This document shows, piece after piece, positions 7,886 through 34,712 of a DNA stretch of 64,000 nt. The position numbers were made by a program, and so were the translations under genes. The first letter of the stretch is position 1, and the number at the start of each line of letters is the position of its first letter. Origin of the DNA: Lachnospiraceae bacterium (GTDB lineage: Bacteria > Bacillota > Clostridia > Lachnospirales > Lachnospiraceae); NCBI GenBank assembly GCA_024698705.1, contig JAILQX010000017.1:13988-77987 (forward strand). The letters run 5' to 3'. The notes under the pieces were generated by a model. That model was not told where the DNA came from. It made no database searches and saw only the letters and a program-made list of their open reading frames with translations.

Positions 7886-8296
7886 TTAATTCCTGTAATC
7901 CTTGCCATGTTTGCCGTTCGGATTGACAAATATGGATTTGAGCACCAGCGCAAGTCCGCCGAACAGCATGATAAAGATCAGAAGCGTGGCAAATAAAGAT
8001 GTCGTATTCCAATAAAGTCTAAGATTCATGATCACATTTGCAATGATCAGAAGGATACTGAGCCCCGTACATATCTTTGATGTCATGTTATATCTGTAGA
8101 ACAGGAAAATGATACTTGCTATAAACGGCACAAAGATCAGTCCGTCCATTCGTCTTCCGAACATCGAAAACGCAAAGATACTGCTCGTCGTTACTTCCAC
8201 ATTCTGCATGAACAGATAACCGCCCACACACAGCATTACCAGCCCGACAAAAAACTGGATTATATCATTTTCACCTAAATTCTCGTTATTTCCCAT
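7886..8296 (-). CDS. Small 4-TM membrane protein, unknown function
   Basis: Four hydrophobic segments. Start set at ATG 8296 (GGAGGAGAGG SD) rather than the track's GTG 8341. Confidence 0.7.
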   Translation of the reverse strand: MGNNENLGENDIIQFFVGLVMLCVGGYLFMQNVEVTTSSIFAFSMFGRRMDGLIFVPFIASIIFLFYRYNMTSKICTGLSILLIIANVIMNLRLYWNTTSLFATLLIFIMLFGGLALVLKSIFVNPNGKHGKDYRN

Positions 8297-8337
8297 ATCC
8301 TCTCCTCCTTCTATCAAACCTGCAATACTAACCCGAT

Positions 8338-9882
8338 TCACCTTCCGGGCTTTCGCATGCCCTGCAATACAGCGAGCAGTACCTTGAACACATCCGTATT
8401 GTCCAGTACGACGATGGCAAGTTCCTTTCTTGCCCTGTTTAGCCCATGGAACAGGTTCCTTACCGGTGATTCATCACCCTCATACCTTGCACGCAGGCTT
8501 CCGTCACCGTCATAATAGAACATATCATCCATAAGCATAACCACTTTATCATATTCCTGACGGCTTGAAAAGTACACTTCCACGCTTCTCGGGGACGTTA
8601 TTCGGGTATAATCGTGCAAATAAACCTCGTTATTTCCGCAGCCGATATCATTTATCAGATCATCGTACACATAAGTGTAATCGTCAGCCATGTAAGAGTT
8701 GATGAGCTTGCGGGCTTCATCGGCATCATTTGCCCAAAGAAGTGACACTGAAGGATATTCCTTGCGATGGTTCATCCTCGTTCCCTGCATCACGCACTGG
8801 ATAAATGACGACAGCTCACTGTTGGTCCTTATCCTGTTGGTGAGCCTGTAATCGGCATAGCCTTCCAGGCCATCTATCCTCCCAACGATATCAGTTGAAA
8901 ATTCTTTCTTTGAGATCACTTTTTCGCTGTCATAACAAAAGATAACAGGCACTTTTAACCTGACAGCATTTGATACTATATGATCAAGCACGTTAACATC
9001 CATGCGGTGAGCCTCGTCGGCAAGTATCGCGGAATAATCATCCAATCCCGGCAGGAAAACACCGTTTTTGCCGTCATAAAAATCTATACGCTTCAGTCTG
9101 CTGTCCAGATGTTTAAGTTCATCGGAAAATGCTCCGCAATGAAATATACATACCTTCTGCTTCTCGGACAGTTTCATGGCTATATCGTACAAAAGCAGAG
9201 TCTTACCCGTTCCGGGAAGACCCGTAAAGCCCTGAAAACAACCGCCCTCAGCCTGTATCTTCTTGAGTATCCTGCGTTTAATGTCCTTCTGACCTGAAGT
9301 AAGAAAATATTCGTTCTGAAGAAATCTGTCCGGATCGTCCAGAGGTGATATGATGTATCTCTCCTCCTTGAAAAGCTCCTCTATGTTGTCCTCGTAGCAA
9401 TGCTTCTGCTTTGCGAGTTCGTTGCACAACTCTTCCCATCCGGCATTCACTATCCTGCCGCTGTTCGTCAGCCTTACAAGCCTGTCAACGGCACTTATGT
9501 AGGTATAAGACCTGATATTGATACCGAGAGTAGACAGATAATATCTGTTCTGCTCCAGTTGTTTCTGTATCTGTTCATCACTTACCGGCTTGCTCTTAAG
9601 CTCGATATTGATGACCGTATCCTCCGAAATACGAAGGAGATCGAACTCCTTTCCAAGTTTCGGGATCTGAAATGAATAATAGAACTTATAACCCGAAGCC
9701 TCCGGTAAAAAAGCCATAAGGTGCTCTACCAGCTGTTCAAGTCCTGTCATTTCCCAGCTTTTTACGGCGATATGACCTGCTCTTGAAGACATCTGGCGTT
9801 CCATCCTGCCAAGGACCGAATTAAGTTCGTCATTTGGCATGGATAATACACGTGTCAATGCATATATATTTACCGGTTTCAA
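8338..9882 (-). CDS. NERD/PD-(D/E)XK-like nuclease fused to a P-loop SF1 helicase-like domain (DUF2075-like)
   Basis: EFDLL...NIELKS nuclease-like motif; Walker A GLPGTGKT; Walker B LADEAH; C-terminal QEYDKV and LFHGLNRARKEL; TTG start. Confidence 0.7.
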   Translation of the reverse strand: MKPVNIYALTRVLSMPNDELNSVLGRMERQMSSRAGHIAVKSWEMTGLEQLVEHLMAFLPEASGYKFYYSFQIPKLGKEFDLLRISEDTVINIELKSKPVSDEQIQKQLEQNRYYLSTLGINIRSYTYISAVDRLVRLTNSGRIVNAGWEELCNELAKQKHCYEDNIEELFKEERYIISPLDDPDRFLQNEYFLTSGQKDIKRRILKKIQAEGGCFQGFTGLPGTGKTLLLYDIAMKLSEKQKVCIFHCGAFSDELKHLDSRLKRIDFYDGKNGVFLPGLDDYSAILADEAHRMDVNVLDHIVSNAVRLKVPVIFCYDSEKVISKKEFSTDIVGRIDGLEGYADYRLTNRIRTNSELSSFIQCVMQGTRMNHRKEYPSVSLLWANDADEARKLINSYMADDYTYVYDDLINDIGCGNNEVYLHDYTRITSPRSVEVYFSSRQEYDKVVMLMDDMFYYDGDGSLRARYEGDESPVRNLFHGLNRARKELAIVVLDNTDVFKVLLAVLQGMRKPGR

Positions 9883-10002: not shown

Positions 10003-11020
10003 CCATCTCATATATCATACGTTCTGTTTTTTCCCAGCCGATGCAGGGATCGGTTATAGACTTGCCGTAAACGGTTCCTCCGACTTCCTGTGCACCGTCT
10101 TCTATATAGCTCTCAACCATGAAGCCCTTGACGTGCTTTCCTATCGTTTCATTGTGTCTGCAGCTATGAAGCACTTCCTTGATTATCCTTGACTGCTCAA
10201 ATGGATTTTTGTTCGAGTTGGAGTGGTTTGTATCGACCACTATGGCCGGGTTGGCCAGTCCCTTATCCGCATACAGATCGCAGATATTTATCAGATCCTC
10301 ATAATGATAATTGGGGATGTTCTGACCATGTTTATTGGTATATCCTCTGAGGATAACATGCGCATACGGATTTCCGGGTGAATGAACCTGCCAGCCTCTG
10401 TAAATAAAAGTATGCTTGCTCTGTGCTGCAAGTAAAGAGTTCATCATGACCAGATTATCACCGCTTGTCGGATTCTTCATACCGACAGGTATTCCGACAC
10501 CGCTTGCCGTCAGTCTGTGCTGCTGGTTCTCAACGCTTCTTGCGCCTACGGCTACATATGCGAGCAGGTCATCAAGATACTTGTGATTCTCAGGATAAAG
10601 CATCTCATCGGCACATGCGAATCCTGTTTCATTTACCGCTCTCATGTGCAACTCTCTTGTGGCAATGATACCTTTGAACAGATCTGATTTCTGTGTTGGA
10701 TCGGGCTGATGCAGAAGTCCCTTATAACCCTTGCCCGTGGTCCTCGGTTTGTTGGTATATATCCTCGGCACGATAAGTATCTTATCCTTGACCTTATCCT
10801 GAACCGGAATGAGTCTCGATATATAATCCATGACACTGTCTTCCCTGTCAGCGGAACACGGTCCGATCACCAACAATTTCTTATCACTTCTTCCGTCAAG
10901 GATCTGCTTGATCTCACCGATCTTCCGCTCAACTATCTGAGTACTCTCCTGCGTAAGCGGATACATCTCCTTAACTTCCATAGGTATGGCAAGCTTTCTT
11001 TCAAATTCCATATCCATCAT
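9989..11020 (-). CDS. aroF: 3-deoxy-7-phosphoheptulonate (DAHP) synthase, class I
   Basis: VIGPCS, KPRTTGKGYKG, VGARSVENQQHR, GMKNPTSG, VDTNHSNS, SITDPCIGW. Confidence 0.93.
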   Translation of the reverse strand: MMDMEFERKLAIPMEVKEMYPLTQESTQIVERKIGEIKQILDGRSDKKLLVIGPCSADREDSVMDYISRLIPVQDKVKDKILIVPRIYTNKPRTTGKGYKGLLHQPDPTQKSDLFKGIIATRELHMRAVNETGFACADEMLYPENHKYLDDLLAYVAVGARSVENQQHRLTASGVGIPVGMKNPTSGDNLVMMNSLLAAQSKHTFIYRGWQVHSPGNPYAHVILRGYTNKHGQNIPNYHYEDLINICDLYADKGLANPAIVVDTNHSNSNKNPFEQSRIIKEVLHSCRHNETIGKHVKGFMVESYIEDGAQEVGGTVYGKSITDPCIGWEKTERMIYEMAEVL

Positions 11021-11130
11021 AATTCCAAATACTCCAATCTATTGATAAATATAATATGTCAGATAAAATCAATATGGATATTTTAATTAGTTTCCTGTCA
11101 AAATACAACAATTTTTTGCATGAGTCTAAA

Positions 11131-11241
11131 GAAGAATCTTCTGTGTGGTTTTCGGTGGATTCTTTTGTATGGTTTTCGGTGGATTCTTTTGTATGGTTTT
11201 CGGTGGATTTTTTTACATGGTTTGCATTGGAATCTTTTGCG
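11131..11241. repeat. 24-bp tandem repeat, 3 near-perfect copies plus degenerate flanking copies
   Basis: TGGTTTTCGGTGGATTCTTTTGTA at 11146 and 11170, a variant at 11194, degenerate copies at 11218 and about 11131. Confidence 0.92.
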
Positions 11242-11303
11242 TCGATTGGCAATAAAATAAGTTTTGAAAGCTCGCGACATATATTTCCAATAAATTAGCT
11301 ATT

Positions 11304-11780
11304 TTATCTGTTCTTTTTCCTCTAATCTACCGGTTTTCGAGGGCTAGGACAGATAATTCCTTCGGATTGGCTACTTTATCTGTTCTTTTTCCTCTAATCT
11401 ACCTGTTTTCGAGGGTTTGAACAGATAATTCCTTAGGATTGGCTGTTTTATCTGTTCTTTTTCCTCTAATCTACCGGTTTTCGAGGGCTGGGACAGATAA
11501 TTCCTTTGAATCGGCTGTTTTATCTGTCCGCTCACCCACAGGAAGCTTGATTCTCTTGGGTTTGAACAGATAATTCCTCCGAATCGGCTGTTTTATCTGT
11601 TCTTTTTCCTCTATTCTACCGGTTTTCGAAGGTTTGAACAGATAATTCCTCCGGATTGGCTGCTTTATCTGTTCTTTTTCCTCTAATCTACCTGTTTTCG
11701 AGGGCTGGGACAGATAATTCCTACGGATTGGCTGTTTTATCTGTCCGCTCACCCCCCTCTGATCTATCGGTTTCGAGGGC
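11304..11780. repeat. 72-bp-period tandem array of palindromic 39-nt elements (6 complete plus 1 half)
   Basis: TTATCTGT starts at 11304, 11376, 11448, 11520, 11593, 11665, 11737. Each later copy is preceded 29 nt earlier by G(G/A)ACAGATAA. Confidence 0.95.
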
Positions 11781-11791
11781 TGATTTATCGT

Positions 11792-14728
11792 CTACTGCAC
11801 ATTATATTTGCTGAGGATGCGGGCATCCGGCTGGTAGCTGCCGAGTTCCTCGGCTGCACGTTTTATGATCTCATCATAACTGAGTACAGGTGAAGAGAAC
11901 ATGGCGGACGTAGTGATAAATGTCAGCTTGTCTTCCTTCCTGTTGTAGCCCTTTACAAAATAGATCTCAGCGATCTCCTCCATGTCAGGATTGAGGAGCA
12001 GGCTCGTATTGGCTTTTATCAGATAGTTGCCGTTTGCAGGCATGCTGATGACATCCCAGATGCGGCCGTAATCTCCGTATGAAGTCTTGACAAGATCACA
12101 TGTACCGGCATCATAGATCTGCATTGTGTTCGAATTGTAGACTATGAACAGGTACTTACCGTCGCTCGAATACATGATACTGCTTACAACACCGTAATCA
12201 CCCATGATCTCCTTATAAGGCTTTGTATCACCTTTGTTATATATGTATATCTTCTTGGATTTTGAATCACAGACTGCCGCATGACTGCCGTCTGCCGAGC
12301 AGGCCACATCATCACTGATGAGCCTGAAACCGGTGATATCGATCTTGATACCGGCATCTTCACCGGTCCTTGTATTCTTAAATTCCACGTATTCATTGCC
12401 GTCATCAGTTGTAAAATATCCGAGATAATTGCCGTCTCCGTATACCTCGAGATCATACAGATAAATATCATCACCAAATTCTATAGTCTTACTGTGCTTC
12501 TTTTCCGCAATATCGTAATATTCCAGAGCTTCCCGTCCGAATAACACAAAACCGTCATCGCCGTCACCCACATAGTTGAAGCGATAGTTTGGCGTCTTAA
12601 ACTCGTCTATCAATGAGGCATCCAATGTATCATAAAGTGATACCGTGAATTCATCATCTCCCGTTTCGGTCAGGATGACTCCGTATTTCAGGTTGTCAGA
12701 TGTGTAATCATAGTTGGCAACATTGGCTGTAAATTCCACATTGGGGCTCTTCAGATATTCATACAACGTGACATAATTCCTGCCCTGAGTTGCAAGGAAA
12801 AGCTTTCCCTTAGCCATACAGCTGTCTTTGACCTTGCCGTTGATCTCATATTCATACAGCGAACTGTCAAGGACCAGTCCGTTTTCAAGGACATATCTGT
12901 TGATAGTACCGTCCTTCGTGATAAGGACTTCAAATTTACCGCCGCTGAGCGGGAATGAATCCACTACCGCCGAGCTCAGACCGCTGTTATAATAGACCGA
13001 TCCGTCATAAGGGCTCAGAGTAAAAGGTCCGTCTGAATCCCTCGCGTAGAGGAAATCCTCTTCTTCGCCTTCGTAATAACGCATGTCGTATAAGAATGAT
13101 GCGATCAGTTGATTATTTGTAAATGCTATCTTTCCCTCATCCATGTTTATTCCGATGATCACACACTGATACTCTATGTAATTGCCGGTCGAGGTCGCAC
13201 TTACATAAGCCATATTGTCATGCATGCACATGGTTGTATAATAATCGCCTTCCGGTCCGAGGTATACATTTTGGATCATGTCACCACTGTCGGTATCATA
13301 TACCACGAAATAATTCTTTTCATCTTCCATCAGACCAACACTTACAATGATACCGAACTTACTGCCGTCATCGGAAAATGATGCCGTTATCATATTGGCG
13401 TAATTTTCTTCCGCAAAGTCACCTTCCCACGAGATCATCGGCTTTGTGTATTCAGCCTTTGCCGTAGCCGTATCGATCAGTATGATGTCATCGTTTACAA
13501 CCATGCATTTCGAATGATCACTGTTAAAAAAGGCCTTACCGACATGATCGGAAATATATGTTTTATTTCCGGACGGTATGTCATATATGTATTCACCTTC
13601 TTCGTCGAAAGTTAAGATGGCATCATCATTGAGAAACTTGATGTAGTCCATGTTATTAAACAGATCACCGACACTGAGACCTGCGACTTCTTCTCCGCTC
13701 TCCACATCCCAGATGACCAGATTATAACTCTCATTGAGTGCCGCGATATGTACTCCCCCGGGTGATACGGTGATCCCGGTAACTCCCGAACCCGCATCAA
13801 AATTTGCCATGGGCATGTACAGATCACCTGACGAATAGCAGCCGAGTGCCTTGGTCATGGCCTTCTGTGCTTCTGCGGCGTAAGGTATGTTATCATTGGC
13901 CGGATCTTTGGGCATCGAGTAATAAAGAGCGTAGAGCGCTTCCATCCTTCGTCCCTCGCTCATGATCGTATCCGAAGCATCGGCCATGCTTATCTCGTAT
14001 TTTTTCAGTGATTCTTTGTATTGCTGCTCTATCTCACCGGCCTGACGGCTGATCTCAACGTTCTGTGCCGCTATTTCCTCAGACTGCTTTTTGATCTTGT
14101 GTGCAGTTATAGCACTGTATGTTCCGAATGCAAGTACAACAGCCATGACAGCCGAGCCTATGGCCAGTATCCTGTGCATCCTCTGTTCACGATGCCTCTG
14201 CTTGAGGTCGTCAAAATTAAGACCGAACATGGGGGCTAAAAGCCTGAGGCCCTCGTCTTTCATCCTCTTTTTGATCTCGTCCCGGTTTGCTCCCCTGAAA
14301 TCCGCTGCAAGCGGTTCACAGAGAATACCCTCCTCATCCTTTAAAAGCTCTTCGGGAAATGAATCGGCCGGCTCGCCTTCAGCCAGCACAACAAATACAT
14401 GCTCCCTGCCATGCATTTTCATGAAAGTCTCTATCTCCTTGCGGCACCACAGAGACTCCTTGAGCCTTGGCGTACAGATGACTATGAGATTACTTGAATT
14501 CTTCAGTGCCTCAGTGATCGGATCGCCGAGATTGGCTACAAGCGGCAGTTCCTCCTGATCCCTGAATACCCTGCTTATCTTTGCGGGCAGGTCGGGATGC
14601 GCCTTTCTGACAGAGCGCGGCAGTTTGAAACTCTCCAGATACTTATGAAGTGTCTTCGCAACAAACATATCCAGTTCGCAATGTCTGTAGCTTATAAATG
14701 CGTCATAATGTATGTTTTCCAGATTCAT
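11792..14728 (-). CDS. TIR-domain protein: N-terminal TIR, one TM helix, coiled coil, C-terminal WD40/beta-propeller
   Basis: YDAFISYRH, VFRDQEEL, SLWCRKEI (catalytic Glu position); TM RILAIGSAVMAVVLAFGTYSAI; propeller-like repeats such as ITVSPGGVHIAA...LVIWDV and IMYSSDGKYL...MQIYDA. Confidence 0.85.
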   Translation of the reverse strand: MNLENIHYDAFISYRHCELDMFVAKTLHKYLESFKLPRSVRKAHPDLPAKISRVFRDQEELPLVANLGDPITEALKNSSNLIVICTPRLKESLWCRKEIETFMKMHGREHVFVVLAEGEPADSFPEELLKDEEGILCEPLAADFRGANRDEIKKRMKDEGLRLLAPMFGLNFDDLKQRHREQRMHRILAIGSAVMAVVLAFGTYSAITAHKIKKQSEEIAAQNVEISRQAGEIEQQYKESLKKYEISMADASDTIMSEGRRMEALYALYYSMPKDPANDNIPYAAEAQKAMTKALGCYSSGDLYMPMANFDAGSGVTGITVSPGGVHIAALNESYNLVIWDVESGEEVAGLSVGDLFNNMDYIKFLNDDAILTFDEEGEYIYDIPSGNKTYISDHVGKAFFNSDHSKCMVVNDDIILIDTATAKAEYTKPMISWEGDFAEENYANMITASFSDDGSKFGIIVSVGLMEDEKNYFVVYDTDSGDMIQNVYLGPEGDYYTTMCMHDNMAYVSATSTGNYIEYQCVIIGINMDEGKIAFTNNQLIASFLYDMRYYEGEEEDFLYARDSDGPFTLSPYDGSVYYNSGLSSAVVDSFPLSGGKFEVLITKDGTINRYVLENGLVLDSSLYEYEINGKVKDSCMAKGKLFLATQGRNYVTLYEYLKSPNVEFTANVANYDYTSDNLKYGVILTETGDDEFTVSLYDTLDASLIDEFKTPNYRFNYVGDGDDGFVLFGREALEYYDIAEKKHSKTIEFGDDIYLYDLEVYGDGNYLGYFTTDDGNEYVEFKNTRTGEDAGIKIDITGFRLISDDVACSADGSHAAVCDSKSKKIYIYNKGDTKPYKEIMGDYGVVSSIMYSSDGKYLFIVYNSNTMQIYDAGTCDLVKTSYGDYGRIWDVISMPANGNYLIKANTSLLLNPDMEEIAEIYFVKGYNRKEDKLTFITTSAMFSSPVLSYDEIIKRAAEELGSYQPDARILSKYNVQ

Positions 14729-14739
14729 TTAGATCCCCC

Positions 14740-16245
14740 TTAAGCCTCTTCATACGTTTTAGCAAATATCTTTCCTTCGATTATGTATATATCATCATTG
14801 TCATCTATCCTGGCCGCCATATAATCATGTTGGCGACCCAGCATATAATTCTGGTTATCCCATGAAGTAAATACCTTTACGGTCTTATCCAGTTCTTTTG
14901 CAAGTATGTAGTTTGTCTGTGTCGAACGGCACGGTCTGATGTAATCCCTCAGTTCTTTCATCTCTCCGGTGATCCTGTTCCTGATCGTAGGTGTGTAGGA
15001 TACATCGCATTCGTACGGCTCATCCACTATCATGTATGTGCTGTCGAACTTTTCTTTTCTGATCGGATATACTTCTCCGACTATTCCGACCATTATGTAT
15101 GTGTTTTCATCTATAACGGTGTTGATATCGCCTTCCAATGTCCTTACCGTTATGAGTGTGTCCTTGGGCCAGAATTCCGAAGGATCCACCATACCGATGA
15201 TGATAGGCTTCTTTACGTATTTTTTGAATTCACTCGGATCGATCTTGTATCGTCCCGCATATATCACTTCACTGCTTGCGAAATACCTGTTCATCGCATT
15301 TCCTATATATGCATCGATATCGAGTTCCTTATAGACACTCTCCATCCTGTTTTTGGCGATAAATCCGCCTGCCTTGTCAATGTGACCGCCTCCGTTGCCT
15401 ATATCGGCCGTCAGGAATTCTATCAGCTCATCCGCGTGCACTTCCTTTACACAGCTTCTGACAGAGAATTTATAACCGCCCGATTCCTCGTTAAATACCA
15501 CGCATATGTCTATCACATCCACCTGAAGCAGGAAATCCGCAATAAGTCCGAGGATATTGGGATCGCAGGGCTGAGAATGGATGATCGCGTATCTTCTGTC
15601 GGGATTGTAGACATATCTGATCAGTGCCACTCCCGCTATTTCCAGTTCTCTTAAGGAAATATTGGAGTTGACGAGCAATGATATCACCGACTGGTCATAT
15701 GCAAGAGAATCCTGCATATCGCGATCCAGAGGGTGTTTCATTTCCGCAAAATTACTTGTATCCGTCATCAGCCCATAATACAGAGCCGTTGCCAGTTTTG
15801 AGTTCATATTGACATTAAAGCCCTCGTATCCGAGCAGCTGCCATACAAGTGTCGAGCAGCTTCCCAGTTCGGAACGTATCTCCGTCATGTCCATGGCCGC
15901 CAACGGTGAAGGTGATGACTGATGATGGTCGATTATTGCCAGGCTATCGTATTCAAAGGGGGTCACATTGCTTTCTCCCTCCTGGCAGTCCACGGTTATC
16001 AGGAGGCCGTCGATATGCATCCTCTTGTCATCTATATAAGTTACAGGTATGGAGAATTCTTTTAGCATCAGTTTAAGATTGGATTTCTGGATCTCATTTC
16101 TTCCGCCGTAGATTATCCTGACGTCCTTTCCCTGATCTCTGAAATACAGGTAAAGTCCGTATGCTGACGCCAATGCATCCGCATCCGGATTATCATGGCA
16201 CTGAAGTGTTATCTTGTCGTATTTTTTCAGATCTGAAAGTCTCAT
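14740..16245 (-). CDS. DHH/DHHA1 family phosphoesterase with a duplicated C-terminal accessory domain
   Basis: HDNPDADA, TVDCQ, IIDHH, GLMTDT, GGGHIDKAGG; the C-terminal ~160 aa contain two similar repeats. Confidence 0.88.
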   Translation of the reverse strand: MRLSDLKKYDKITLQCHDNPDADALASAYGLYLYFRDQGKDVRIIYGGRNEIQKSNLKLMLKEFSIPVTYIDDKRMHIDGLLITVDCQEGESNVTPFEYDSLAIIDHHQSSPSPLAAMDMTEIRSELGSCSTLVWQLLGYEGFNVNMNSKLATALYYGLMTDTSNFAEMKHPLDRDMQDSLAYDQSVISLLVNSNISLRELEIAGVALIRYVYNPDRRYAIIHSQPCDPNILGLIADFLLQVDVIDICVVFNEESGGYKFSVRSCVKEVHADELIEFLTADIGNGGGHIDKAGGFIAKNRMESVYKELDIDAYIGNAMNRYFASSEVIYAGRYKIDPSEFKKYVKKPIIIGMVDPSEFWPKDTLITVRTLEGDINTVIDENTYIMVGIVGEVYPIRKEKFDSTYMIVDEPYECDVSYTPTIRNRITGEMKELRDYIRPCRSTQTNYILAKELDKTVKVFTSWDNQNYMLGRQHDYMAARIDDNDDIYIIEGKIFAKTYEEA

Positions 16246-16357
16246 ATATTTCCCCCATCTTTAGAACATCGGCCGATTTTCGCATAATATTTTATTGTAT
16301 TATACTATAAAAACTCAGGTAATACATTATTTATGATCAAATCTTAAGAGTTAACGA

Positions 16358-16386
16358 TTGTATTGGACGGGGCAAAATAATATAAT
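16358..16386 (+). promoter_or_regulatory. Putative sigma-70 promoter for the aquaporin gene
   Basis: TTGTAT-17 bp-TATAAT. Confidence 0.5.
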
Positions 16387-16472
16387 AATAGATGTGGGTA
16401 TATTATTATCAGGTCAGTTCTCTGACCATGTATACTGCGCCGTATCGGCGTTTACAAAAGGAGGTAGAGTAA

Positions 16473-17156
16473 ATGAAAAAGTACATTGCTGAATTTATCG
16501 GCACATGTGTATTGGTTGTTATGGGTTGTGGTACGGCAATGCTGGTAGGCTGTGATGCCGCAAACGGAAGCGGCTATCTGCTGACTGCACTTGCATTTGG
16601 TCTGACCATCGTAGGTATGGCTTACTGTGTCGGCAATATTTCCGGCTGTCATATCAATCCCGCTGTTTCACTCGGTGTATTCATGAGCGGCGGTATGGAC
16701 GGCAAGGATTTCTGCTGTTACGTAGTATCGCAGATCCTCGGTGCCATCGCAGGCACGGGCATTCTCGCAGCCATATTTAATCTCGGTGCTGTTCCCGACA
16801 TGACAGGCGGCTACGGCTCCAACGGACTTGCCGGAGTAAGCGGAAGCGCTGTCGCAGGTCTTCTGGTTGAGATCGTTCTTACATTCATCTTCGTTATGAC
16901 CATTCTCGGCGTTACTTCAAAGAAAGCCGGCCATGGTTCTTTCGGAGGACTGATCATCGGTCTCACACTTACACTTGTACATATCCTCGGCATCGGCCTC
17001 ACAGGTACTAGCGTTAACCCCGCAAGAAGTATAGGTCCCGCTCTTTTCGCAGGCGGTGACGCACTTTCAAGCCTTTGGGTATTTATCGTAGGCCCTCTTG
17101 CAGGCGCAGCTATCGCAGCACTTGTCTACAAGGCACTCGAAGCAGAGAAGAAATGA
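16473..17156 (+). CDS. aqpZ: MIP family channel (aquaporin Z-like)
   Basis: Two NPA motifs (GCHINPAVS, TSVNPARS); AAAGGAGG SD. Confidence 0.9.
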   Translation: MKKYIAEFIGTCVLVVMGCGTAMLVGCDAANGSGYLLTALAFGLTIVGMAYCVGNISGCHINPAVSLGVFMSGGMDGKDFCCYVVSQILGAIAGTGILAAIFNLGAVPDMTGGYGSNGLAGVSGSAVAGLLVEIVLTFIFVMTILGVTSKKAGHGSFGGLIIGLTLTLVHILGIGLTGTSVNPARSIGPALFAGGDALSSLWVFIVGPLAGAAIAALVYKALEAEKK

Positions 17157-17240: not shown

Positions 17241-17906
17241 TCAAGCTTTGTTGTATTTATTCTTTCTGCGTCTGCGTCGCTTTTTATGTCCATGCTCTGT
17301 CCTATAAGCATTGATCTCATCAAATATGGTCGTATAATCCCTTTCAAATAATTCCTCGCTTACCTGTTTCCAAAGTATTTCCTCCGGAACACTGTCCAGA
17401 ATGTATCTTTGAACATATTGCTTGCTCTTTGCGGCATACATATACAGCCCGTTTATCTGCTGAATGTGTGCAAGTTCCGGTCTCCAGAGTATGGTGATCT
17501 TATTCTCCGATTTCAGTAGCGGGTTGATCTCCGGCTTTCTCAGGACATAAAAATCGATAGCATCACCCGGCTCGCTCCCGGTCTCCATAGCTTCGGCTAC
17601 TATGATGCCCCAGTATTCCGGTACATGCTCCTCGATGTGAGCAGCGTGACTTGAACCGACCACAACTATATTGCGATCGTAATACATATCATAATTTCTG
17701 ACCTGTCCTTCAAGTCTTGTGTAACTGTCGCGGTCACTCTTGATCTCTATACCGTACAATGCATCCTCGGTGACCATCACGATATCCGCTCTTGCCTTTC
17801 CTGTCCTTTTCTCATCAAGGATGCGGACCTTACCGTATTCATTTTCCAGAAAATCATACAGTGATTCTCTTATATCTTTATCCGAAGTTCTGTATACTTC
17901 TTTCAT
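17241..17906 (-). CDS. sce7726 family protein (PD-(D/E)XK-like fold)
   Basis: RADIV...YGIEIKSDRDSYTRL..QV..Y...YD...VV pattern. Confidence 0.75.
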   Translation of the reverse strand: MKEVYRTSDKDIRESLYDFLENEYGKVRILDEKRTGKARADIVMVTEDALYGIEIKSDRDSYTRLEGQVRNYDMYYDRNIVVVGSSHAAHIEEHVPEYWGIIVAEAMETGSEPGDAIDFYVLRKPEINPLLKSENKITILWRPELAHIQQINGLYMYAAKSKQYVQRYILDSVPEEILWKQVSEELFERDYTTIFDEINAYRTEHGHKKRRRRRKNKYNKA

Positions 17907-22297: not shown

Positions 22298-23422
22298 TCA
22301 TACATAATCTTTTATAATATGTAATTCAATAAGCAAATCTTTAAGTTTTTGTTTTATGCATGCTATAGGAAGAGCAATAAAAACAGCTCTTTTAAAATTC
22401 CCATTTTTTTTCAAACTCTTCATAAACCTTCTCCTTCCAATATGCCTGTTGGATGGATGTTTCAGTTGATGATTCGCATCAACTGCTGCACTTAAATCAA
22501 CCTCTTCTAAATGCAATTCAGCTGTTTCAAGTAAGGCAATACCCTTCTCACTTTGACAAAGGATAAGTGAAACTCCCTTATCCATCTTATCCGACAGCTG
22601 TCCCCATGCATCTCCAAGTGTGATATCAGAGACGCGTTTGATAGACGCGTACCTACAAGAATAGCAATTCTCTGTATAATTAAGACTATTTAAAAAAGCC
22701 AAAAGATACGAATCCAAAACGCGATTAGGCTTAATACGACTTCCATTTATGCTTATTCCAAATCTGTTATTATTTCTGAAGTCTATTTGCGTGATAGTCT
22801 CCCATATAATTCCTTCATCTGAAATGTATTGTTTCAACAAACTTGGCGATGGGGTCCCATGGCAAATCAAATCCATGGTGTATAGTTCTTCATATTCCCT
22901 ATAAAGACTTATTACTCCAGCGACTTGACATGGAAGGCCAATAAAAAGGACTTTCTCACCTCTACTAAGAAGAGTTTTAATCTCTTCATAAATGTTTTGT
23001 GGATTACTTTTAACATATTTTGACCCAGCAAACTTGTTTATATCTTTTACATTATTAGTTGCCTTAAATATAAAATCTCCATCCTCAAATAAACAAGAAA
23101 CCACATATCCGCCTTTTTTTACGAAAGACATAATAATAGCTGAAGCCGCTCCTCCCGATGCTGAGTGTTGTCTGATTTCTTCCGGGGCCCACCCTTGTTT
23201 CCAAAAAATCGGCTCTCTCAACTCGCATAAAACTTCATTTGGACAAACCTTTTTACATGTATCGCAATCCACACACTTTTCCTTATCAATTATGGCATTA
23301 AGTGCTCCTATAGAATCTTCTATTCGTATAGCATTCTTGGGACATACGTTCTCACAAGCTCTACATCCAGTACACATATCAATATCACATACTGTACTCA
23401 TCTTTTCACTCTTTCTCATCAT
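22298..23422 (-). CDS. 4Fe-4S protein with FrhB-type (F420 hydrogenase beta subunit-like) domains, polysaccharide-locus type
   Basis: CTGCRACENVCP, CVDCDTCKKVCP, SASGGAAS, GSKYVKS, GLPCQV, DLICHGTPS, CYSCRY. Confidence 0.88.
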   Translation of the reverse strand: MMRKSEKMSTVCDIDMCTGCRACENVCPKNAIRIEDSIGALNAIIDKEKCVDCDTCKKVCPNEVLCELREPIFWKQGWAPEEIRQHSASGGAASAIIMSFVKKGGYVVSCLFEDGDFIFKATNNVKDINKFAGSKYVKSNPQNIYEEIKTLLSRGEKVLFIGLPCQVAGVISLYREYEELYTMDLICHGTPSPSLLKQYISDEGIIWETITQIDFRNNNRFGISINGSRIKPNRVLDSYLLAFLNSLNYTENCYSCRYASIKRVSDITLGDAWGQLSDKMDKGVSLILCQSEKGIALLETAELHLEEVDLSAAVDANHQLKHPSNRHIGRRRFMKSLKKNGNFKRAVFIALPIACIKQKLKDLLIELHIIKDYV

Positions 23423-24867
23423 CTGCGCAGACTCTTATGCCTATTTAAAACTATATGGGATACTCCCTTAACTAATTCACGAAATTCTTTTCCAAAAACA
23501 CATGGTATAACAATAACGCAAATTATCCTTATGATTTCATATGCTATGCCATTAAAAAATAACGACACTCCCGAAATAATCATTATAAAAAGACATGTAA
23601 AATATTTTAAATCTGATATTTTTATTCTAATATATTTTCGGGTATCAAAAAGGCGATAAATAAATACTCCAACATAACTTAACAACGTAGCAACTGCAGC
23701 TCCATTAACTTTCATCTTTGGTATTAGGATCAGATTCAACAATATATTTATCGTTGCCCCCAATGCTGCCGAAAACAAAAACCCCTTTCCATCTTTCTCA
23801 ACTACATATGGTGTTGCCAAAAAAGATCCTAGAGAAAGAAAAACAAACCCTATTACTAAATATGGTGTATATTTCCAAGACTCATAAAACTCTTTTCCCG
23901 TATACACCCGTAAAAAAGATTTAATAACAAGAAAAATGGATACTGCAACAAAAGAAGCGGTAGCGAACAGTCCTCTAAACACTTTATTACTATATGCTTC
24001 CTTATCGTCACTATCATTTTCTCGGATTGCCGAGTAAGACCATGCCTGGTTAAATATCTGTACTAAACCAGTTAATAGAGATGGGATTTTATATGAAACC
24101 GCATATACTCCATTTGCCGCTTCACTAACCAATGCTGTAACCATAATTCGATCCGATGAATTAGTAACCCACCACAGAAAAGTGTTGGGCGCTAAAACCA
24201 TTGCATATCGTATCATATTTTTCGTTAAAGCAACATCAATATGAAATGCCTTTAACTCTAAAATTACCTTTCCGGCAATACACGCATATATGGAAGTGAT
24301 TAAGTTTGCCAAAATATATGCTAGAAAATACCCTTTTATCCCTAACTTAAATGAAACCAGAAATAAAATATTGAATCCTGCTATTAATCCCGCATTAATG
24401 ATATTCCCTATAGAATACTTTAATAACTCTTCCTTTCCCCTTAAATAGCACAAGAATAATTGACTACTTGCTAACATAAATATACATGCACAAAGATAAA
24501 AAGAGTATTCAGAGATATACTGCGCCTGGTGAAGAAAAACAACCGGAAATACTACGTGAGTAATTGGTATTGCAAAAAGTGTGATAAGTAACGCTATTCC
24601 CCAAATACTTATTCCCGTACTTATAATCCCTGTCCTATCCGAATCTTTATCAAGTGGAAATCTCATCAATGATTCACCTATATTCAATATTACTAGAGGC
24701 GCCAGAACAGTACATATTGTAAAAAGTAAATCTATAATTCCATATTCTTCTGTAGTTAAAACATTCGTATATAATGGCACTAGAAAAAAAGCTATTATTT
24801 TCGTACCCAAGCTACCAATTGCGAAAATAAAGGTATTCTTAGCAAGATATCCCCTGCGTCCCATCAA
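23419..24867 (-). CDS. wzx: Wzx flippase
   Basis: About 12-14 TM; LAKNTFIFAIGS...LVPLYTNVL, SDRIMV...GVYAVSYK. Confidence 0.88.
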   Translation of the reverse strand: MMGRRGYLAKNTFIFAIGSLGTKIIAFFLVPLYTNVLTTEEYGIIDLLFTICTVLAPLVILNIGESLMRFPLDKDSDRTGIISTGISIWGIALLITLFAIPITHVVFPVVFLHQAQYISEYSFYLCACIFMLASSQLFLCYLRGKEELLKYSIGNIINAGLIAGFNILFLVSFKLGIKGYFLAYILANLITSIYACIAGKVILELKAFHIDVALTKNMIRYAMVLAPNTFLWWVTNSSDRIMVTALVSEAANGVYAVSYKIPSLLTGLVQIFNQAWSYSAIRENDSDDKEAYSNKVFRGLFATASFVAVSIFLVIKSFLRVYTGKEFYESWKYTPYLVIGFVFLSLGSFLATPYVVEKDGKGFLFSAALGATINILLNLILIPKMKVNGAAVATLLSYVGVFIYRLFDTRKYIRIKISDLKYFTCLFIMIISGVSLFFNGIAYEIIRIICVIVIPCVFGKEFRELVKGVSHIVLNRHKSLRR

Positions 24868-24868
24868 T

Positions 24869-25834
24869 TCATCTCCAACTTCTGTTTCTTACTGCAATAG
24901 AAATGTATGTATCAATTAAACACATTCTCAATGCTTTACCCACTCTAGTACGATGTCCAACCAGTTGCCATAATAATCTGTACATTTCTCTTAACTCATT
25001 GGTCATCAGTTTTTTGTTTTCTTTATCTGGCAATTGATTCATTGCGCGAATCAAACGATGTCTTACTATTAATTCGAAATACTCGCAGGCATAAACCAAA
25101 TTATCCGGAGCATTATTATTTACAAAAAATTTTTTTAATCCTCTAGCAACATCTATTCCTGACCATTGCCCTGGAAAAAAAGCTCTTTTACTCTGAGATA
25201 ATGGATTTTGCACCCAATGATATAATGGCGTATCATCAAAATATAGTTTTCTCACCTTATACATCAATCTAATCATCATTGAATAGTCTTCATATTGACT
25301 ACCCACTGGGAAAACAACATCCTCTATTACTGATCGACTTATCAGCTTGTTCCACACCGCCCCAGAAGCAGTTTTGTTTTGAAAAAGAATATTATATATA
25401 AAAACTTCCGACTCATATATACCCGAATGCATTTCAACAAATCTATTCTCCTCGCTTCCGTCTATATAAGTCATATAATTAGCGCAACAAGACAGAAGTA
25501 CATCATTATCGATAGCATTCTTTAAGAGTCTCTCATACATTGTAGGTTCTATATAATCGTCATCATCTACAAATCCTATATAATCCCCTGTGGAGATTTC
25601 TATGCCAAAATTTCTCGCTTCAGCCTGTCCCCCGTTTGCCTTGTGTAACACTACTATCCGTTTATCCTCTTGTTTTAATTCGTCACAAATATGAGGAGAT
25701 TCATCTGGGCTTCCATCATCAACAAGTATTATTTCAAGGTTTTCATACGTTTGTTTCATAATCGACTGAACACACTTACGTAACGTTTTTTCACCTCGAA
25801 ATACGGGAACTATCACGCTAATTTTACATTTCAT
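24869..25834 (-). CDS. GT2 glycosyltransferase
   Basis: ISVIVPVF, LVDDGS, ARNFG, FVDDDD. Confidence 0.9.
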   Translation of the reverse strand: MKCKISVIVPVFRGEKTLRKCVQSIMKQTYENLEIILVDDGSPDESPHICDELKQEDKRIVVLHKANGGQAEARNFGIEISTGDYIGFVDDDDYIEPTMYERLLKNAIDNDVLLSCCANYMTYIDGSEENRFVEMHSGIYESEVFIYNILFQNKTASGAVWNKLISRSVIEDVVFPVGSQYEDYSMMIRLMYKVRKLYFDDTPLYHWVQNPLSQSKRAFFPGQWSGIDVARGLKKFFVNNNAPDNLVYACEYFELIVRHRLIRAMNQLPDKENKKLMTNELREMYRLLWQLVGHRTRVGKALRMCLIDTYISIAVRNRSWR

Positions 25835-25880
25835 TTAAAAACCGCCTAAACAATCTAATAATCTAATAAAGCAGGAAACA

Positions 25881-27011
25881 TCAGTCAATCAAAATCTTCT
25901 TCATTATCGAAAAGGATTTTTCTCGCTCAGATAACAATACTTGTTCAACTTTATCAAAACCTATCTTCCTATCACATAAGTCATATTCATCAAATGACAA
26001 GAGAATTCTATCTTCTGTACCCGTCATCATTAAAATGCTTTCTATTCTAGTGGCATATTTCTTCGGTTTAACCACAATAAACGGCACTTTAAAGTTTAAA
26101 GAAAATGCAGTCATATGAAAGGAATCCGTTATTATACAGGTGGCATCTGAAATCAAACGAAGAAATGTTTCTATTGTAACATTATTCAAGCATCTTCCTA
26201 TTTTTTTTCGATCCCCTCTTCGCATACCAATACGTATTATTTGCCAGCCTTTTAGTATCGCTAATTCTTTAGTATACTTTTCAAATAATGGATTATCATT
26301 AAGCTGGTATACTAGAAGATATTTGCCCTTAATGGTTTGCTTCTCTGCAGCAAGAGTTCTCCATTCAACGTCAGTTAACATTAATGTTGGATCCAAAACC
26401 TGATGGGATTTGATTCCAATAGAATCCAACAACTCCTTCGCAGAGTTTTCTCGAACCGTTATTCCGGAATATTTACACAACATTTTCTGAAACAAAGAAA
26501 TTTCTTTTGTGTCAAGGTGCTCCTTTCCAATGCTTGAAGAATAAGATATTCTTTTTGATTCTTCTGGCAAGAAATCAAGAAAGAAAACTCTGTCCACTCC
26601 TCCGTTCCAATCACTATTCCATATTTGATCACTTCCCGAAATATACACATCTGCCACAGGATAGTTTGATAAAAGTTCCTCGAATGAATAATATCTGGCC
26701 TGAGTCAGATTCACATTATGCGTAATGAACTCCCAAAAGATGTTTTTTTTATCTACAAACATCACCCTAATAAACCATTTAGAAAATGATCCTATTGGAT
26801 TGCGATCATCATTTATCAACTTGATTCTTGAAGTAATTCTATTCCTTCTTAAAATTAGTTTCGCAATTGCATCTGATGTGTTGCTCTCTCTCCAATAATC
26901 AATGAATTCAACATCATATCCAAGTTTATTAAGTACTTTCATAGTTGCATATGTCTGTAACACCGACCCATAGTTTCTAACTGTATGTAAAGTAATCACA
27001 TCCGCTTTCAC
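25881..27011 (-). CDS. Polysaccharide pyruvyl transferase family protein
   Basis: NYGSVLQTYA, SGSDQIWN, SYSSSIG, VRE, DPT, TDSFH; GTG start. Confidence 0.9.
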   Translation of the reverse strand: MKADVITLHTVRNYGSVLQTYATMKVLNKLGYDVEFIDYWRESNTSDAIAKLILRRNRITSRIKLINDDRNPIGSFSKWFIRVMFVDKKNIFWEFITHNVNLTQARYYSFEELLSNYPVADVYISGSDQIWNSDWNGGVDRVFFLDFLPEESKRISYSSSIGKEHLDTKEISLFQKMLCKYSGITVRENSAKELLDSIGIKSHQVLDPTLMLTDVEWRTLAAEKQTIKGKYLLVYQLNDNPLFEKYTKELAILKGWQIIRIGMRRGDRKKIGRCLNNVTIETFLRLISDATCIITDSFHMTAFSLNFKVPFIVVKPKKYATRIESILMMTGTEDRILLSFDEYDLCDRKIGFDKVEQVLLSEREKSFSIMKKILID

Positions 27012-27144
27012 AATTTAATCTCCATATCATTCATCCTATATTATTTACCAATTGAATCGGCGGCAGCGTAAAGCCGCATAGAAACTTGACATTTTTATAC
27101 TGTTAAAAAAACATAGGGTATAATTTTAGGAATTATATTCATGG

Positions 27145-27993
27145 TCAGTCTCCCAAAGTATACTTTTTAAAACCATCTATCTTCCCTTTTAACGAATATA
27201 ATGAACGCTTATACTTCTTATTACCGATACTGTACAATAATATTCCGCCCATACTTTTTATGAGCGATTTTATATATAACCAGCCCCACAGGATCTTTCT
27301 GTTTTTTAAATAATATTTTTTATATAATGCCCCAAATCCAACACTGTAATTATATGTACGAGTATAATCAATTATATCTGTGTTACTTTTATGATAAACA
27401 ATTAACGCAGGATTATATATAACTCTCTTTTTTTCTATAAGTGTTTTAATTACTATATCAGTTTCTTCCCCCGCTCCATATTGGGCTCCAATACCAAAAT
27501 CCATATCAAATCCATCAGATAATATACTTTTGTGTATTATCATTGCCGCACTCATACAATAATCAAATATTGAATTCCATTTGATATTGATCGTGTTTGC
27601 CTCTATCATGTGCGGAAGCAGATACTCTCCTGTTATCGGATCTTTTATTCTTCCCGCAAGTATTCCAACGTCGTTTGTATTTTCAATTGTTTCATTAGCT
27701 TCTTTTAAGTAGTTATGATCATAAACTGCATCATCATCAATCAGAGCAATAAAATCACCTTCGCAAAATTGTAATCCAAGATTTCTGGATCTTGATAACC
27801 CTTTTTCTGATACATGATAATATTTTATACATTCACTATTCTGATAATCATAATTGATATTATCACTCTGATCTATAATTACTATTTCATATTTATCATA
27901 TGACTGCTCAAGTAAAGAATTAACACATCTTCTCAACAATTCCTCGCGATTCAAAGTACATAATAAAAATGAAAATTTTATATTTCTACCCAT
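27145..27993 (-). CDS. GT2 glycosyltransferase
   Basis: LLCTLNR, IIDQS, GLSRSRNLG, LIDDDA, GAGEETD. Confidence 0.88.
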   Translation of the reverse strand: MGRNIKFSFLLCTLNREELLRRCVNSLLEQSYDKYEIVIIDQSDNINYDYQNSECIKYYHVSEKGLSRSRNLGLQFCEGDFIALIDDDAVYDHNYLKEANETIENTNDVGILAGRIKDPITGEYLLPHMIEANTINIKWNSIFDYCMSAAMIIHKSILSDGFDMDFGIGAQYGAGEETDIVIKTLIEKKRVIYNPALIVYHKSNTDIIDYTRTYNYSVGFGALYKKYYLKNRKILWGWLYIKSLIKSMGGILLYSIGNKKYKRSLYSLKGKIDGFKKYTLGD

Positions 27994-28005
27994 ATGTCAC
28001 CCAAT

Positions 28006-29094: not shown

Positions 29095-29101
29095 AACAAA
29101 T

Positions 29102-30148: not shown

Positions 30149-30155
30149 ATGCGCC

Positions 30156-31304: not shown

Positions 31305-31316
31305 AGTAGTTCCCTT

Positions 31317-32660: not shown

Positions 32661-32673
32661 TCTTTACGCCCTC

Positions 32674-34692: not shown

Positions 34693-34712
34693 ACTCTTCC
34701 CCGCCTTACAGG

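Follow-up and report, generated by a model that had tools for sequence, protein, structure and literature searches.

A DHH phosphoesterase gene and a gene for a TIR-bearing transmembrane (TM) receptor form a real and old pair, one whose adjacency is kept much more often than chance would allow and despite rearrangement. The pair was analysed in a 64,000-nt window of the gut-dwelling Lachnospiraceae bacterium GCA_024698705.1 (contig JAILQX010000017.1, positions 13,988-77,987 of the forward strand), and no description of it was found in the literature searched. Our tentatively preferred reading is that the two proteins might constitute a transmembrane writer/eraser nucleotide-signalling module. 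The two genes had been initially annotated as lying 11 bp apart behind an intergenic region of their own, and the open reading frames and the 227-bp upstream region agree with this (Table 1). The upstream region is common, divergently, to the pair and an aquaporin-like gene (at 16473). Purine-rich ribosome binding sites (RBS) precede both ATG codons, with GGGGGA ahead of the DHH start at 16245 and AAGGGGGA of the TIR gene spanning the DHH stop codon. Judged from sequence, the genes are probably co-transcribed, and a scan found no terminator-like site between them. A TATAAT stands at 16304-16299 (-) in the upstream region; promoter-like sites were not commoner than chance in the promoter scan (17 sites versus 14.2 expected in shuffled sequence).

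Table 1. Positions of the gene pair and its parts within the window.
Feature	Position	Strand	Basis
TIR-TM-stalk-tandem-propeller gene, 978 aa	11792..14728	-	ORF list, Pfam, AF2 model
Tandem beta-propellers (residues ~299-947) and two C-terminal helices, predicted extracellular	11795..13834	-	AF2, Foldseek
Helical stalk with coiled-coil-like heptads, and a small helical region that is conserved (residues 209-298), predicted extracellular	13835..14104	-	AF2
Single TM helix, residues 186-208	14105..14173	-	Hydropathy and positive-inside analysis, 46 homologs
TIR domain and conserved juxtamembrane segment, residues 1-185, predicted cytoplasmic	14174..14728	-	TIR_2, invariant columns, 50-65% identity across loci
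11-bp spacer between DHH and TIR genes	14729..14739	-	Sequence; carries TIR-gene RBS
DHH-DHHA1-PGDYG-like phosphoesterase gene, 501 aa	14740..16245	-	ORF list, Pfam, AF2 model
All-beta C-terminal domain, residues 324-501, divergent PGDYG-like (PF14083)	14743..15276	-	AF2 secondary structure, hhalign
DHHA1 domain, residues 226-308, GGGH motif	15322..15570	-	Pfam PF02272 and conserved residues
DHH domain, residues 11-158, motifs I-IV intact	15772..16215	-	Pfam PF01368 and invariant residues
227-bp intergenic region upstream of the DHH-TIR pair	16246..16472	-	Sequence

Co-occurrence of the two genes, proposed as a check by the initial annotation, extends well beyond this genome. Among 77 informative species-level loci in a DHH-anchored scan of GTDB, an intact TIR-TM gene adjoins the DHH gene or lies close to it in 48 (42 with the TIR gene adjacent and downstream, three in the reverse order and three with inserted genes between), and three more carry TIR remnants. 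Of the 56 pairs with both flanks visible, 28 have stayed together although neither ancestral flank is left. Co-directional, reversed, convergent (Eubacterium sp. and Clostridiales) and divergent (one pair, L156) arrangements occur. The genes were also fused once, in a natural protein of TIR, DHH and C-terminal domain with 14 member sequences and a degenerate GGGH motif. A distant DHH branch (38% identity) adjoins another kind of TIR-TM receptor, whose ectodomain has PPC-like repeats and no propeller. A TIR-anchored metagenome scan found a linked DHH gene in 28 of 69 loci. The TIR gene has been repeatedly lost or pseudogenised while the DHH gene was retained. In about a third of DHH loci no TIR gene lies nearby, and glnS then directly follows the DHH gene. 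The DHH protein must therefore either serve a function independent of TIR or act with TIR paralogs encoded elsewhere.

The DHH gene, which is lineage-wide, resides in a conserved housekeeping synteny block of guaB, GGDEF-EAL, purO-like, purH, DHH, glnS and DUF2225. Both the DHH protein and the TIR module retain ~60% identity across the family, tracking GlnRS, and the two correlate with each other (Spearman 0.70). The ectodomain diverges far more, with a median pairwise identity of 18% versus 61% for the TIR module. Neither protein was matched by PADLOC at E<=0.01, and no homologs of either were found in 2.9 million viral contigs. Given divergence that tracks GlnRS and the lack of PADLOC and viral-contig matches, the pair looks like a vertically inherited signalling module of Lachnospiraceae and related Clostridia rather than a mobile defence island. 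A hairpin array that the initial annotation had considered as a third component is to be set aside, since it is a strain-variable repeat that differs in copy number between strains, and none of the 165 related loci has it.

The 501-aa partner carries DHH (PF01368, E 2.5e-16) and DHHA1 (PF02272, E 4.5e-8) domains, and its motifs are complete as first annotated. Scored on 18 and 41 homologs, the motif residues are invariant or at least 90% conserved. D21, D23, D86, D106, H107, H108 and D162 are invariant in the alignment of 41 sequences. In the GGGH motif (G285 to H288), G286, G287 and H288 are invariant, and G285 is invariant in one alignment (A1) and conserved in at least 90% in the other (A2). 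The AF2 model (pLDDT 89.5) has its best Foldseek matches in TmPDE, the GdpP catalytic domain, NrnA/Pde2, DhhP and Rv2837c (E about 1e-17), and the modelled fold matches phosphodiesterases of pApA, c-di-AMP and nanoRNA. The protein shares its DHH/DHHA1 fold and catalytic motifs with NrnA/Pde2, TmPDE TM1595, DhhP, Rv2837c/CnpB and the GdpP catalytic domain, but it is only 17-22% identical to the stand-alone DHH-DHHA1 phosphodiesterases and GdpP and has an additional PGDYG-like beta domain of 178 aa. The initial annotation had recognised that the protein might prove to be the ordinary housekeeping NrnA/Pde2 ortholog. This was rejected, as the protein scores 23.2 bits with NCBIfam NF053633 against an equivalog cutoff of 350, and the conserved C-terminal domain and length of 501 aa depart from the two-domain layout of about 310-340 aa. 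RecJ, in which DHH and DHHA1 are linked via a long helix and joined by an OB fold, was rejected as well (TIGR00644, 17.9 versus 396.9 bits; RecJ structures placed under the NrnA-type matches in Foldseek). Whereas GdpP has TM, PAS and degenerate GGDEF domains at its N-terminus, the DHH domain here begins at residue 11 and none of these are present.

The C-terminal beta domain is specific to this DHH family and is divergent but PGDYG-like; no papers on PGDYG domains were found in the literature searched. Comparison with PGDYG domains in hhalign gave a probability of 93.7% (E 1.9e-7). The domain carries an insertion, and Pfam PF14083 does not match the window protein and reaches one homolog only under the cutoff (E 0.016). 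Some members of the DHH family bear an additional canonical PGDYG domain. Matches to the C-terminal domain were restricted to 347 clusters among 1.84 billion representatives; GGDEF, class III cyclase and TIR domains are among its fusion partners. The C-terminal domain recurs next to DHH-like modules that are catalytically dead and are joined to GGDEF and class III cyclases, which implies, at the level of domain architecture, a putative role in nucleotide-related ligand binding or regulation.

The 978-aa receptor is matched by TIR_2 (PF13676, E 8e-8, 33.2 bits versus a cutoff of 28), marginally by ThsB_TIR (21.8 versus 21.2 bits) and by WD40-type propeller models. In its AF2 model (pLDDT 87.3), the N-terminal domain alternates between beta and alpha elements. 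The first 185 residues include W94-C95-x-x-E98 and the segments EPLAADFRG and FDDLKQRHREQ. The Glu of the WC..E motif, noticed from the start, proved invariant in 46 of 46 homologs, with W94 and C95 invariant or nearly so. The catalytic Glu of NAD+-processing TIR domains stands at the start of helix alphaC, and E98 aligns with that of plant TIR NADases ("SSWCLDE" motif). A Glu at this position is necessary but not sufficient for TIR NADase activity. The initial annotation also took a basic stretch and a single TM helix as signs of a cytoplasmic TIR domain, and the family bears this out. A single TM segment is present in 42 of 46 members, and K and R average 5.9 on the N-terminal flank versus 1.9 on the C-terminal flank (46 homologs), which supports a predicted type-II single-pass receptor with the TIR domain in the cytoplasm. 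AF2 helices span residues 172-257 (continuous and containing the TM segment), 261-271 and 285-295. An I/Q periodicity in the stalk and a GRR..A.YA / PY.A.AEYAL motif are conserved among homologs. The ectodomain was first described as a propeller of roughly 700 aa. The propeller nature stands, with best Foldseek matches in tandem WD40 proteins (e.g., Utp21, PWP2, EML-like and Apaf-1), but the model divides it into a helical stalk and about 650 aa of tandem propellers.

Several known systems share elements with the pair. As in Thoeris (ThsB and ThsA), a TIR domain with a Glu at the catalytic position is encoded next to a nucleotide-handling partner, and the logic of TIR oligomerisation producing an NAD+-derived signal is plausibly common to both and to other TIR signalling. 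Unlike in Thoeris, which is found on mobile islands, the TIR domain here belongs to an integral membrane receptor whose ectodomain is large, its partner is a DHH protein rather than SLOG, Macro or SIR2, and the module is vertical and in housekeeping synteny. Thoeris was rejected for want of a PADLOC ThsB match and of a ThsA-type gene (SLOG/Macro with SIR2 or TM) in the neighbourhood. CBASS and Pycsar were rejected likewise, with no PADLOC match for the pair and no CD-NTase or cyclase gene in the neighbourhood. Animal Toll-like and IL-1 receptors likewise span the membrane once, with a sensor built of repeats outside and a TIR domain in the cytoplasm, and they too combine a fast-evolving ectodomain with a conserved TIR. 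However, the TIR domain here is N-terminal, the orientation is reversed (type II) and the sensor is a beta-propeller instead of LRR or Ig repeats. The resemblance is an analogy only, and the architecture shows no sign of common descent. Periplasmic tandem beta-propellers in Bacteroides hybrid two-component sensors (e.g., BT4663) provide a precedent for glycan sensing in gut bacteria. Compared by architecture alone, these similarly link an extracytoplasmic tandem propeller, by way of a TM helix, with a signalling domain in the cytoplasm, but their output is a histidine kinase/response regulator and not a TIR domain.

What follows is inferred, like co-transcription: that the receptor senses a ligand, that its TIR domain has NADase activity, which product this yields and that the DHH protein acts on that product. 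The fast-evolving tandem propeller on its helical stalk would bind an external cue, possibly a glycan, an envelope component or a phage. The signal would run along the continuous stalk/TM helix and alter the packing of the cytoplasmic TIR domains, which once assembled may cleave NAD+ into an ADP-ribose-derived nucleotide. The DHHA1 and PGDYG-like domains of the DHH protein might then recognise this nucleotide, and hydrolysis by the intact DHH centre would determine how strong the signal is and how long it lasts. Several observations speak against such a writer/eraser module, including the third of DHH loci without a TIR gene, the TIR pseudogenes, the 41 of 69 TIR loci with no DHH gene nearby and the degenerate GGGH motif of the fusion protein. 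The enzymes known to be structurally close to the DHH domain act on 3'-5' phosphodiesters (pApA, pAp, c-di-AMP) and, to our knowledge, do not cut pyrophosphate or ribose-ribose linkages of the ADPR type.

The DHH protein might instead be the reader and effector of the TIR-made signal, which would bind the PGDYG-like/DHHA1 module and switch on hydrolysis of c-di-AMP, pApA, pAp or short RNA, resetting physiology. We regard this as unlikely, and nothing in the data at hand separates it from an eraser. Attachment of the C-terminal domain, along with dead DHH-like modules, to the output enzymes GGDEF and class III cyclase is what a sensor module typically shows, the phosphodiesterases nearest in fold act on c-di-AMP, pApA and nanoRNA, and retention of the DHH gene without an adjacent TIR gene would fit a housekeeping substrate of its own. 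However, a single pocket would need to serve both regulation and catalysis in active members. Catalysis by the TIR domain could be dispensed with altogether if a non-enzymatic TIR domain, serving like that of animal TLRs as a platform for protein interaction, and the highly conserved juxtamembrane motif recruited or released the DHH protein at the membrane under control of the ectodomain. The conservation of EPLAAD.RG and DDLKQRH at the level of the TIR core suggests a docking surface, and the fusion protein shows that the cell tolerates, or benefits from, having TIR and DHH close together. An alignment to a TLR revealed a WCxYE-type motif there too, and we know of no NADase activity in TLR TIR domains with this motif. 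Such a scaffold is nevertheless quite improbable to us, as catalysis is the simplest explanation for an invariant Glu and most bacterial TIR domains tested to date are NAD+-processing enzymes.

The two genes could also lack any functional link, with the DHH protein being a lineage-specific housekeeping nucleotidase or nanoRNase beside which a TIR gene was inserted by chance in an ancestor. The conserved purine/GlnRS block and the breadth of the DHH family (at least 548 species matches) would suit this explanation. So would the absence or decay of the TIR gene in about 38% of DHH loci with all DHH catalytic residues kept and the many TIR paralogs unlinked to DHH. However, pairing independent of the flanks, four orientations, a fusion and a second, non-orthologous receptor type with a different ectodomain make an inherited accidental adjacency inadequate, and we give it a very low probability. 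Abortive infection akin to Thoeris would have the propeller sense phage at the surface, the TIR domain deplete NAD+ or make a death signal, and the DHH protein act as safety valve or effector nuclease. TIR domains are a hallmark of Thoeris and related defence, and the low identity of the ectodomain is as an arms race predicts. The window also holds an Nhi/AbiO-like gene at a distance of two genes, with a gene of the sce7726 family nearby. The defence framing is nonetheless weak. The PADLOC and viral-contig searches, vertical inheritance tracking GlnRS and usual neighbours that are housekeeping rather than defence genes all stand against it, and the conservation of the TIR module is unlike that of patchy mobile defence genes, leaving abortive infection highly unlikely.

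A broader, and to us doubtful, picture is that of a prokaryotic counterpart to Toll-like signalling in Lachnospiraceae and gut Clostridia related to them. Transmembrane receptors with hypervariable sensors outside the cell, either tandem propellers or PPC-like repeats, would turn an external cue into a TIR-made nucleotide messenger inside. Dedicated DHH-DHHA1-PGDYG phosphoesterases, and PGDYG-linked GGDEF or cyclase proteins elsewhere among bacterial lineages, would erase or read it. If true, this would represent a new second-messenger pathway of core gut commensals, devoted to physiology or to surveillance at the surface and not to abortive infection in its classical form.

The gene pair formed by a DHH-family phosphoesterase and a membrane-spanning TIR protein is genuine and widespread. 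In the window, both minus-strand ORFs were found exactly where the initial annotation had placed them, separated by an 11-bp gap and each with a purine-rich ribosome-binding site before its start codon. The 227-bp intergenic region 5' of the pair is divergently shared with an aquaporin-like gene. A promoter and terminator scan of the locus gave results no better than shuffled sequence, so neither element is claimed, and Rfam returned zero matches at E<=1 across positions 10900-16600. A search for RNA-seq runs bearing on co-transcription of the two genes retrieved none.

Positions of the gene pair, of the modelled parts of the TIR protein and of related architectures
Feature	Position or identifier	Strand	Basis
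DHH gene	14740..16245	-	ORF, 501 aa
TIR gene	11792..14728	-	ORF, 978 aa
TIR domain	residues ~1-170		model
Continuous helix with the sole hydrophobic segment (186-208), extending into the predicted extracellular stalk	residues 172-257		model
Small helical region, ~650 residues of beta-strands, then two C-terminal helices	after the stalk helix		model
C-domain plus dead DHH/DHHA1-like segment fused to GGDEF or class III cyclase	proteins P0264, P0328, P0357, P0367, P0384		
PPC-repeat TIR-TM receptor (Stomatobaculum; in Mogibacterium the repeat part only)	L167:4348-5982 and L168:4282-4980		

In the DHH protein, Pfam recognizes DHH and DHHA1 domains, and the complete motif set claimed from the initial reading is indeed present, with all four DHH motifs (D21/D23, D86, D106-H107-H108, D162) and the DHHA1 GGGH motif (residues 285-288) intact. 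Alignments of 18 and 41 homologs show little or no variation at these residues. The AlphaFold model has a mean pLDDT of 89.5. Over the first ~320 residues, its best superpositions are with stand-alone DHH/DHHA1 phosphodiesterases cleaving pApA, nanoRNA, pAp or c-di-AMP. With the whole model as Foldseek query, the top structural matches were TmPDE TM1595, the GdpP catalytic domain, NrnA/Pde2, DhhP and Rv2837c. In fold and motifs, the protein is similar to NrnA, Pde2, TmPDE and the GdpP catalytic core. The protein nevertheless departs from the two-domain architecture of NrnA and scores 23 bits against the NCBIfam NrnA equivalog cutoff of 350; the concern that it might be the ordinary NrnA/Pde2 ortholog was therefore dismissed.

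The departure lies in an additional all-beta domain at residues 324-501, here called the C-domain. A PDB sequence search with this domain retrieved only noise and no relative. Profile-profile comparison with PGDYG (PF14083) gave a probability of 93.7% and an E-value of 1.9e-7, in agreement with a weak direct Pfam PGDYG match in one DHH homolog. On these profile matches, the C-domain is probably a divergent member of the PGDYG-like domains. When 1.84 billion representative proteins were searched exhaustively, the C-domain turned up in only 347 clusters, nearly all of the same ~500-aa architecture. The exceptions include fusions to GGDEF with a catalytically dead DHH-like module, class III nucleotide cyclases (adenylate/guanylate) with a dead DHHA1-like segment, versions carrying an additional canonical PGDYG domain, and a single TIR_2, DHH and C-domain fusion. 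The fusions to GGDEF, cyclases and TIR_2 indicate that the C-domain accompanies enzymes making or breaking nucleotide messengers. Together with a dead DHH/DHHA1-like segment, it could represent a novel sensor module of cyclic-nucleotide enzymes.

The TIR protein combines a TIR_2 domain, above the Pfam gathering score, with WD40-type propeller matches. Its AlphaFold model (pLDDT 87.3) gave a Foldseek match list dominated by propellers, and the beta region matched tandem WD40 propellers such as Utp21, PWP2, EML-like proteins and Apaf-1. These tandem matches indicate that the ectodomain holds two propellers rather than one. The propeller nature proposed in the initial annotation is hence retained, while its single ~700-aa propeller gives way to a stalk followed by tandem propellers. 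A single TM segment is found in 42 of 46 homologs, with lysine and arginine averaging 5.9 on the N-terminal flank against 1.9 on the C-terminal flank across the 46, and the protein has no signal peptide. The charge bias and the missing signal peptide predict a cytoplasmic TIR domain and extracellular propellers, in line with the topology first suggested. W94, C95 and E98 hardly vary, if at all, among homologs, and E98, the glutamate of the WC..E motif already recognized in the initial annotation, aligns with the catalytic glutamate of plant TIR NADases. Two juxtamembrane motifs, EPLAAD.RG and DDLKQRH, are conserved as strongly as the TIR core.

Conservation of the pairing was assessed from both partners. 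A DHH-anchored scan of one genome per GTDB species yielded at least 548 matches, almost all in Lachnospiraceae, of which the best 80 were kept, with 77 informative loci. Among these 77 loci from the best 80 matches, the TIR-TM-propeller gene lies directly 3' of DHH in 42, with gaps of 5-210 bp, and the adjacency noted initially is conserved. The order is reversed in three loci, the genes are split by a LytTR two-component pair or glycosyl-transferase-type genes in three, decayed TIR fragments remain in three, and 26 have no TIR beside DHH. The intervening LytTR response regulator comes with a small GHKL-type kinase (L067:8542-10189, also L075 and L087), and the insert at L005 comprises an epimerase, a GT2, a BlaI-like regulator and an ORF of no known kind. 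A TIR-anchored scan of metagenome contigs gave 69 loci with enough upstream sequence. DHH is immediately upstream in 21 of these, close by in a downstream, divergent or spaced position in 7, and lacking in 41. The unlinked TIR genes fall into clades of their own and look like paralogous subfamilies; a search for an alternative conserved partner beside them found none. At one such orphan gene, in Lachnospiraceae bacterium G41 (L001:9108-14812), the opposite strand carries four tandem paralogs of ~410 aa each, without Pfam match, followed by a NUDIX hydrolase. The same paralog array occurs in L084.

The two genes might be accidental neighbors without any functional link. DHH usually resides in a housekeeping block (a DUF gene, guaB, an Fe-hydrogenase-like GGDEF/EAL protein, a purO-like gene, purH, DHH, TIR when present, glnS and DUF2225), and such a stable context could suggest an accidental adjacency. 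The pairing is, however, kept through rearrangement. Among the 56 adjacent pairs whose two flanks can be seen, the ancestral neighbors are missing from both sides in 28, and the flanks on either side are unique in 18. In Eubacterium sp. and Clostridiales, DHH branches of 44-50% identity are adjoined convergently by a TIR-propeller gene. A different TIR-TM receptor precedes the 38%-identical DHH of Stomatobaculum, with a TIR of another subtype and an ectodomain of two ~100-aa PPC-like repeats; in Mogibacterium, only the PPC-like repeat part was called as an ORF upstream of DHH. The TIR and DHH fusion, with 14 member sequences, belongs to this distant PPC-repeat DHH branch. Given five gene arrangements, two ectodomain types and one fusion, chance or plain ancestry is a much less likely explanation than a functional partnership, which we consider probably real.

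How the partners work together is a more tentative matter. Anatomy, motifs and genomic linkage are what the analysis shows. Reasoning from established bacterial and plant TIRs and from DHH/DHHA1 enzymes, we infer the following enzymology. An extracellular cue would act upon the tandem propellers, and the stalk/TM helix would pass on a changed oligomeric state. Cytoplasmic TIR domains would then assemble and turn NAD+ into an ADPR-derived nucleotide, which the DHH-DHHA1-PGDYG protein would recognize and hydrolyze, creating a writer/eraser pair. As specified, this mechanism is the best-supported reading, with the balance still tilting slightly against it. Its main weakness is the persistence of DHH without an adjacent TIR, which implies either an independent function or service to unlinked TIR paralogs. 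DHH might instead be a signal-activated effector on c-di-AMP, pApA or nanoRNA, or the TIR domain might be a non-catalytic scaffold docking DHH at the membrane. A Thoeris-like abortive-infection role is not supported. In working logic, the module comes closest to TIR-based nucleotide signalling such as Thoeris, but with neither a ThsA-type partner nor a match in PADLOC the pair does not qualify as Thoeris.

Median pairwise identity over 66 linked pairs is 59% for DHH, 61% for the TIR module (residues 1-185) and 18% for the ectodomain. Distances of DHH and TIR module correlate (Spearman 0.70), and both correlate with the neighboring GlnRS (0.72 for DHH, 0.65 for the TIR module). Neither family is present in 2.9 million viral contigs, and PADLOC recognized neither protein, leading us to reject the pair as a catalogued defence system. 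Combined with the vertical signature and the housekeeping neighbors, these results do not support a defence interpretation. TIR-less loci are scattered over the DHH tree and TIR pseudogenes occur, indicating that TIR was lost repeatedly while DHH was kept with all catalytic residues. Directly after DHH, the TIR gene is frameshifted at the WCR motif with its propeller gone (L014:8457-9646), is reduced to a 130-aa remnant (L016:8526-8918) or is broken into two ORFs (L081:8526-10907). These loci are snapshots of TIR loss beside an intact DHH. Such a pattern is the mark of a module inherited vertically throughout the lineage, whose receptor is dispensable, and not of a mobile defence cassette.

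The wider neighborhood in the window has features of its own. Past the aquaporin-like gene, at a distance of two genes upstream from the pair, is an sce7726-family gene (17241-17906, minus strand; NCBIfam E 1e-42; PADLOC model 'cll' E 8e-17). An Nhi/AbiO-like defence protein of 514 aa, which contains an SLFN-type helicase domain (8338-9882, minus strand; PADLOC E ~5e-122), is followed with a 4-bp overlap by a 151-aa multi-pass membrane ORF (7886-8341, minus strand), and the two may be a defence unit. The Nhi/AbiO-like and sce7726-family neighbors occur near the pair in this window and are not its general context. A low-GC block at ~22300-34700 on the minus strand (32-37% versus about 45%) is an exopolysaccharide/capsule cluster with a Wzx-type flippase, EpsG polymerase, GT2 and GT4 transferases, pyruvyl transferase, Bac_transf priming enzymes and an FrhB-like protein, and was probably acquired horizontally.

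The hairpin array 3' of the TIR gene had been raised as a possible third component, a role we reject. In the array (11294-11754), a 72-bp unit containing a palindrome with a 10-bp stem is repeated in tandem ~6 times. Compared with shuffled sequence, the array folds much better (z = -7.9). It adjoins a 24-bp repeat in four tandem copies (11137-11239), and the array region is also the 5' leader of a DAHP synthase gene. The motif is absent in all 165 related loci, and in the closest relative rpsT follows 117 bp after the TIR gene. Copy number is strain-variable: in related strain X6, the array is shorter by 369 bp and the adjoining 24-bp repeat by one unit. The ~35-bp palindrome alone recurs within unrelated sequence in short contigs of the same metagenomes, which suggests a dispersed REP-like element.

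No description of the pair, the receptor architecture or the PGDYG domain was found in the literature searched, including a TIR survey (PMC7075850), and the gene pair is apparently undescribed. The layout of the receptor is analogous to that of animal TLRs, with the orientation reversed and a propeller in place of LRRs. Bacteroides hybrid two-component systems use tandem-propeller sensors, and the ectodomain logic may be alike. To our knowledge, bacterial TIR signalling is known almost solely from cytoplasmic, mobile anti-phage systems. Here, in contrast, the TIR domain sits behind a TM helix, with a large, fast-evolving and predicted extracellular sensor and a genetic tie to a distinctive DHH phosphoesterase. 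Should the link be merely syntenic, the analysis would still provide useful annotation of two large uncharacterized families. If the TIR domain makes a messenger, the module would count as the first example of outside-in TIR signalling to be described in bacteria. The uncharacterized PGDYG domain would gain a function, and a new class of nucleotide-turnover enzymes would be identified. The evolutionary question of bacterial parallels to receptor-type TIR signalling as in TLRs would likewise become testable, in a module passed on vertically throughout a family dominant among the commensals of gut and rumen.
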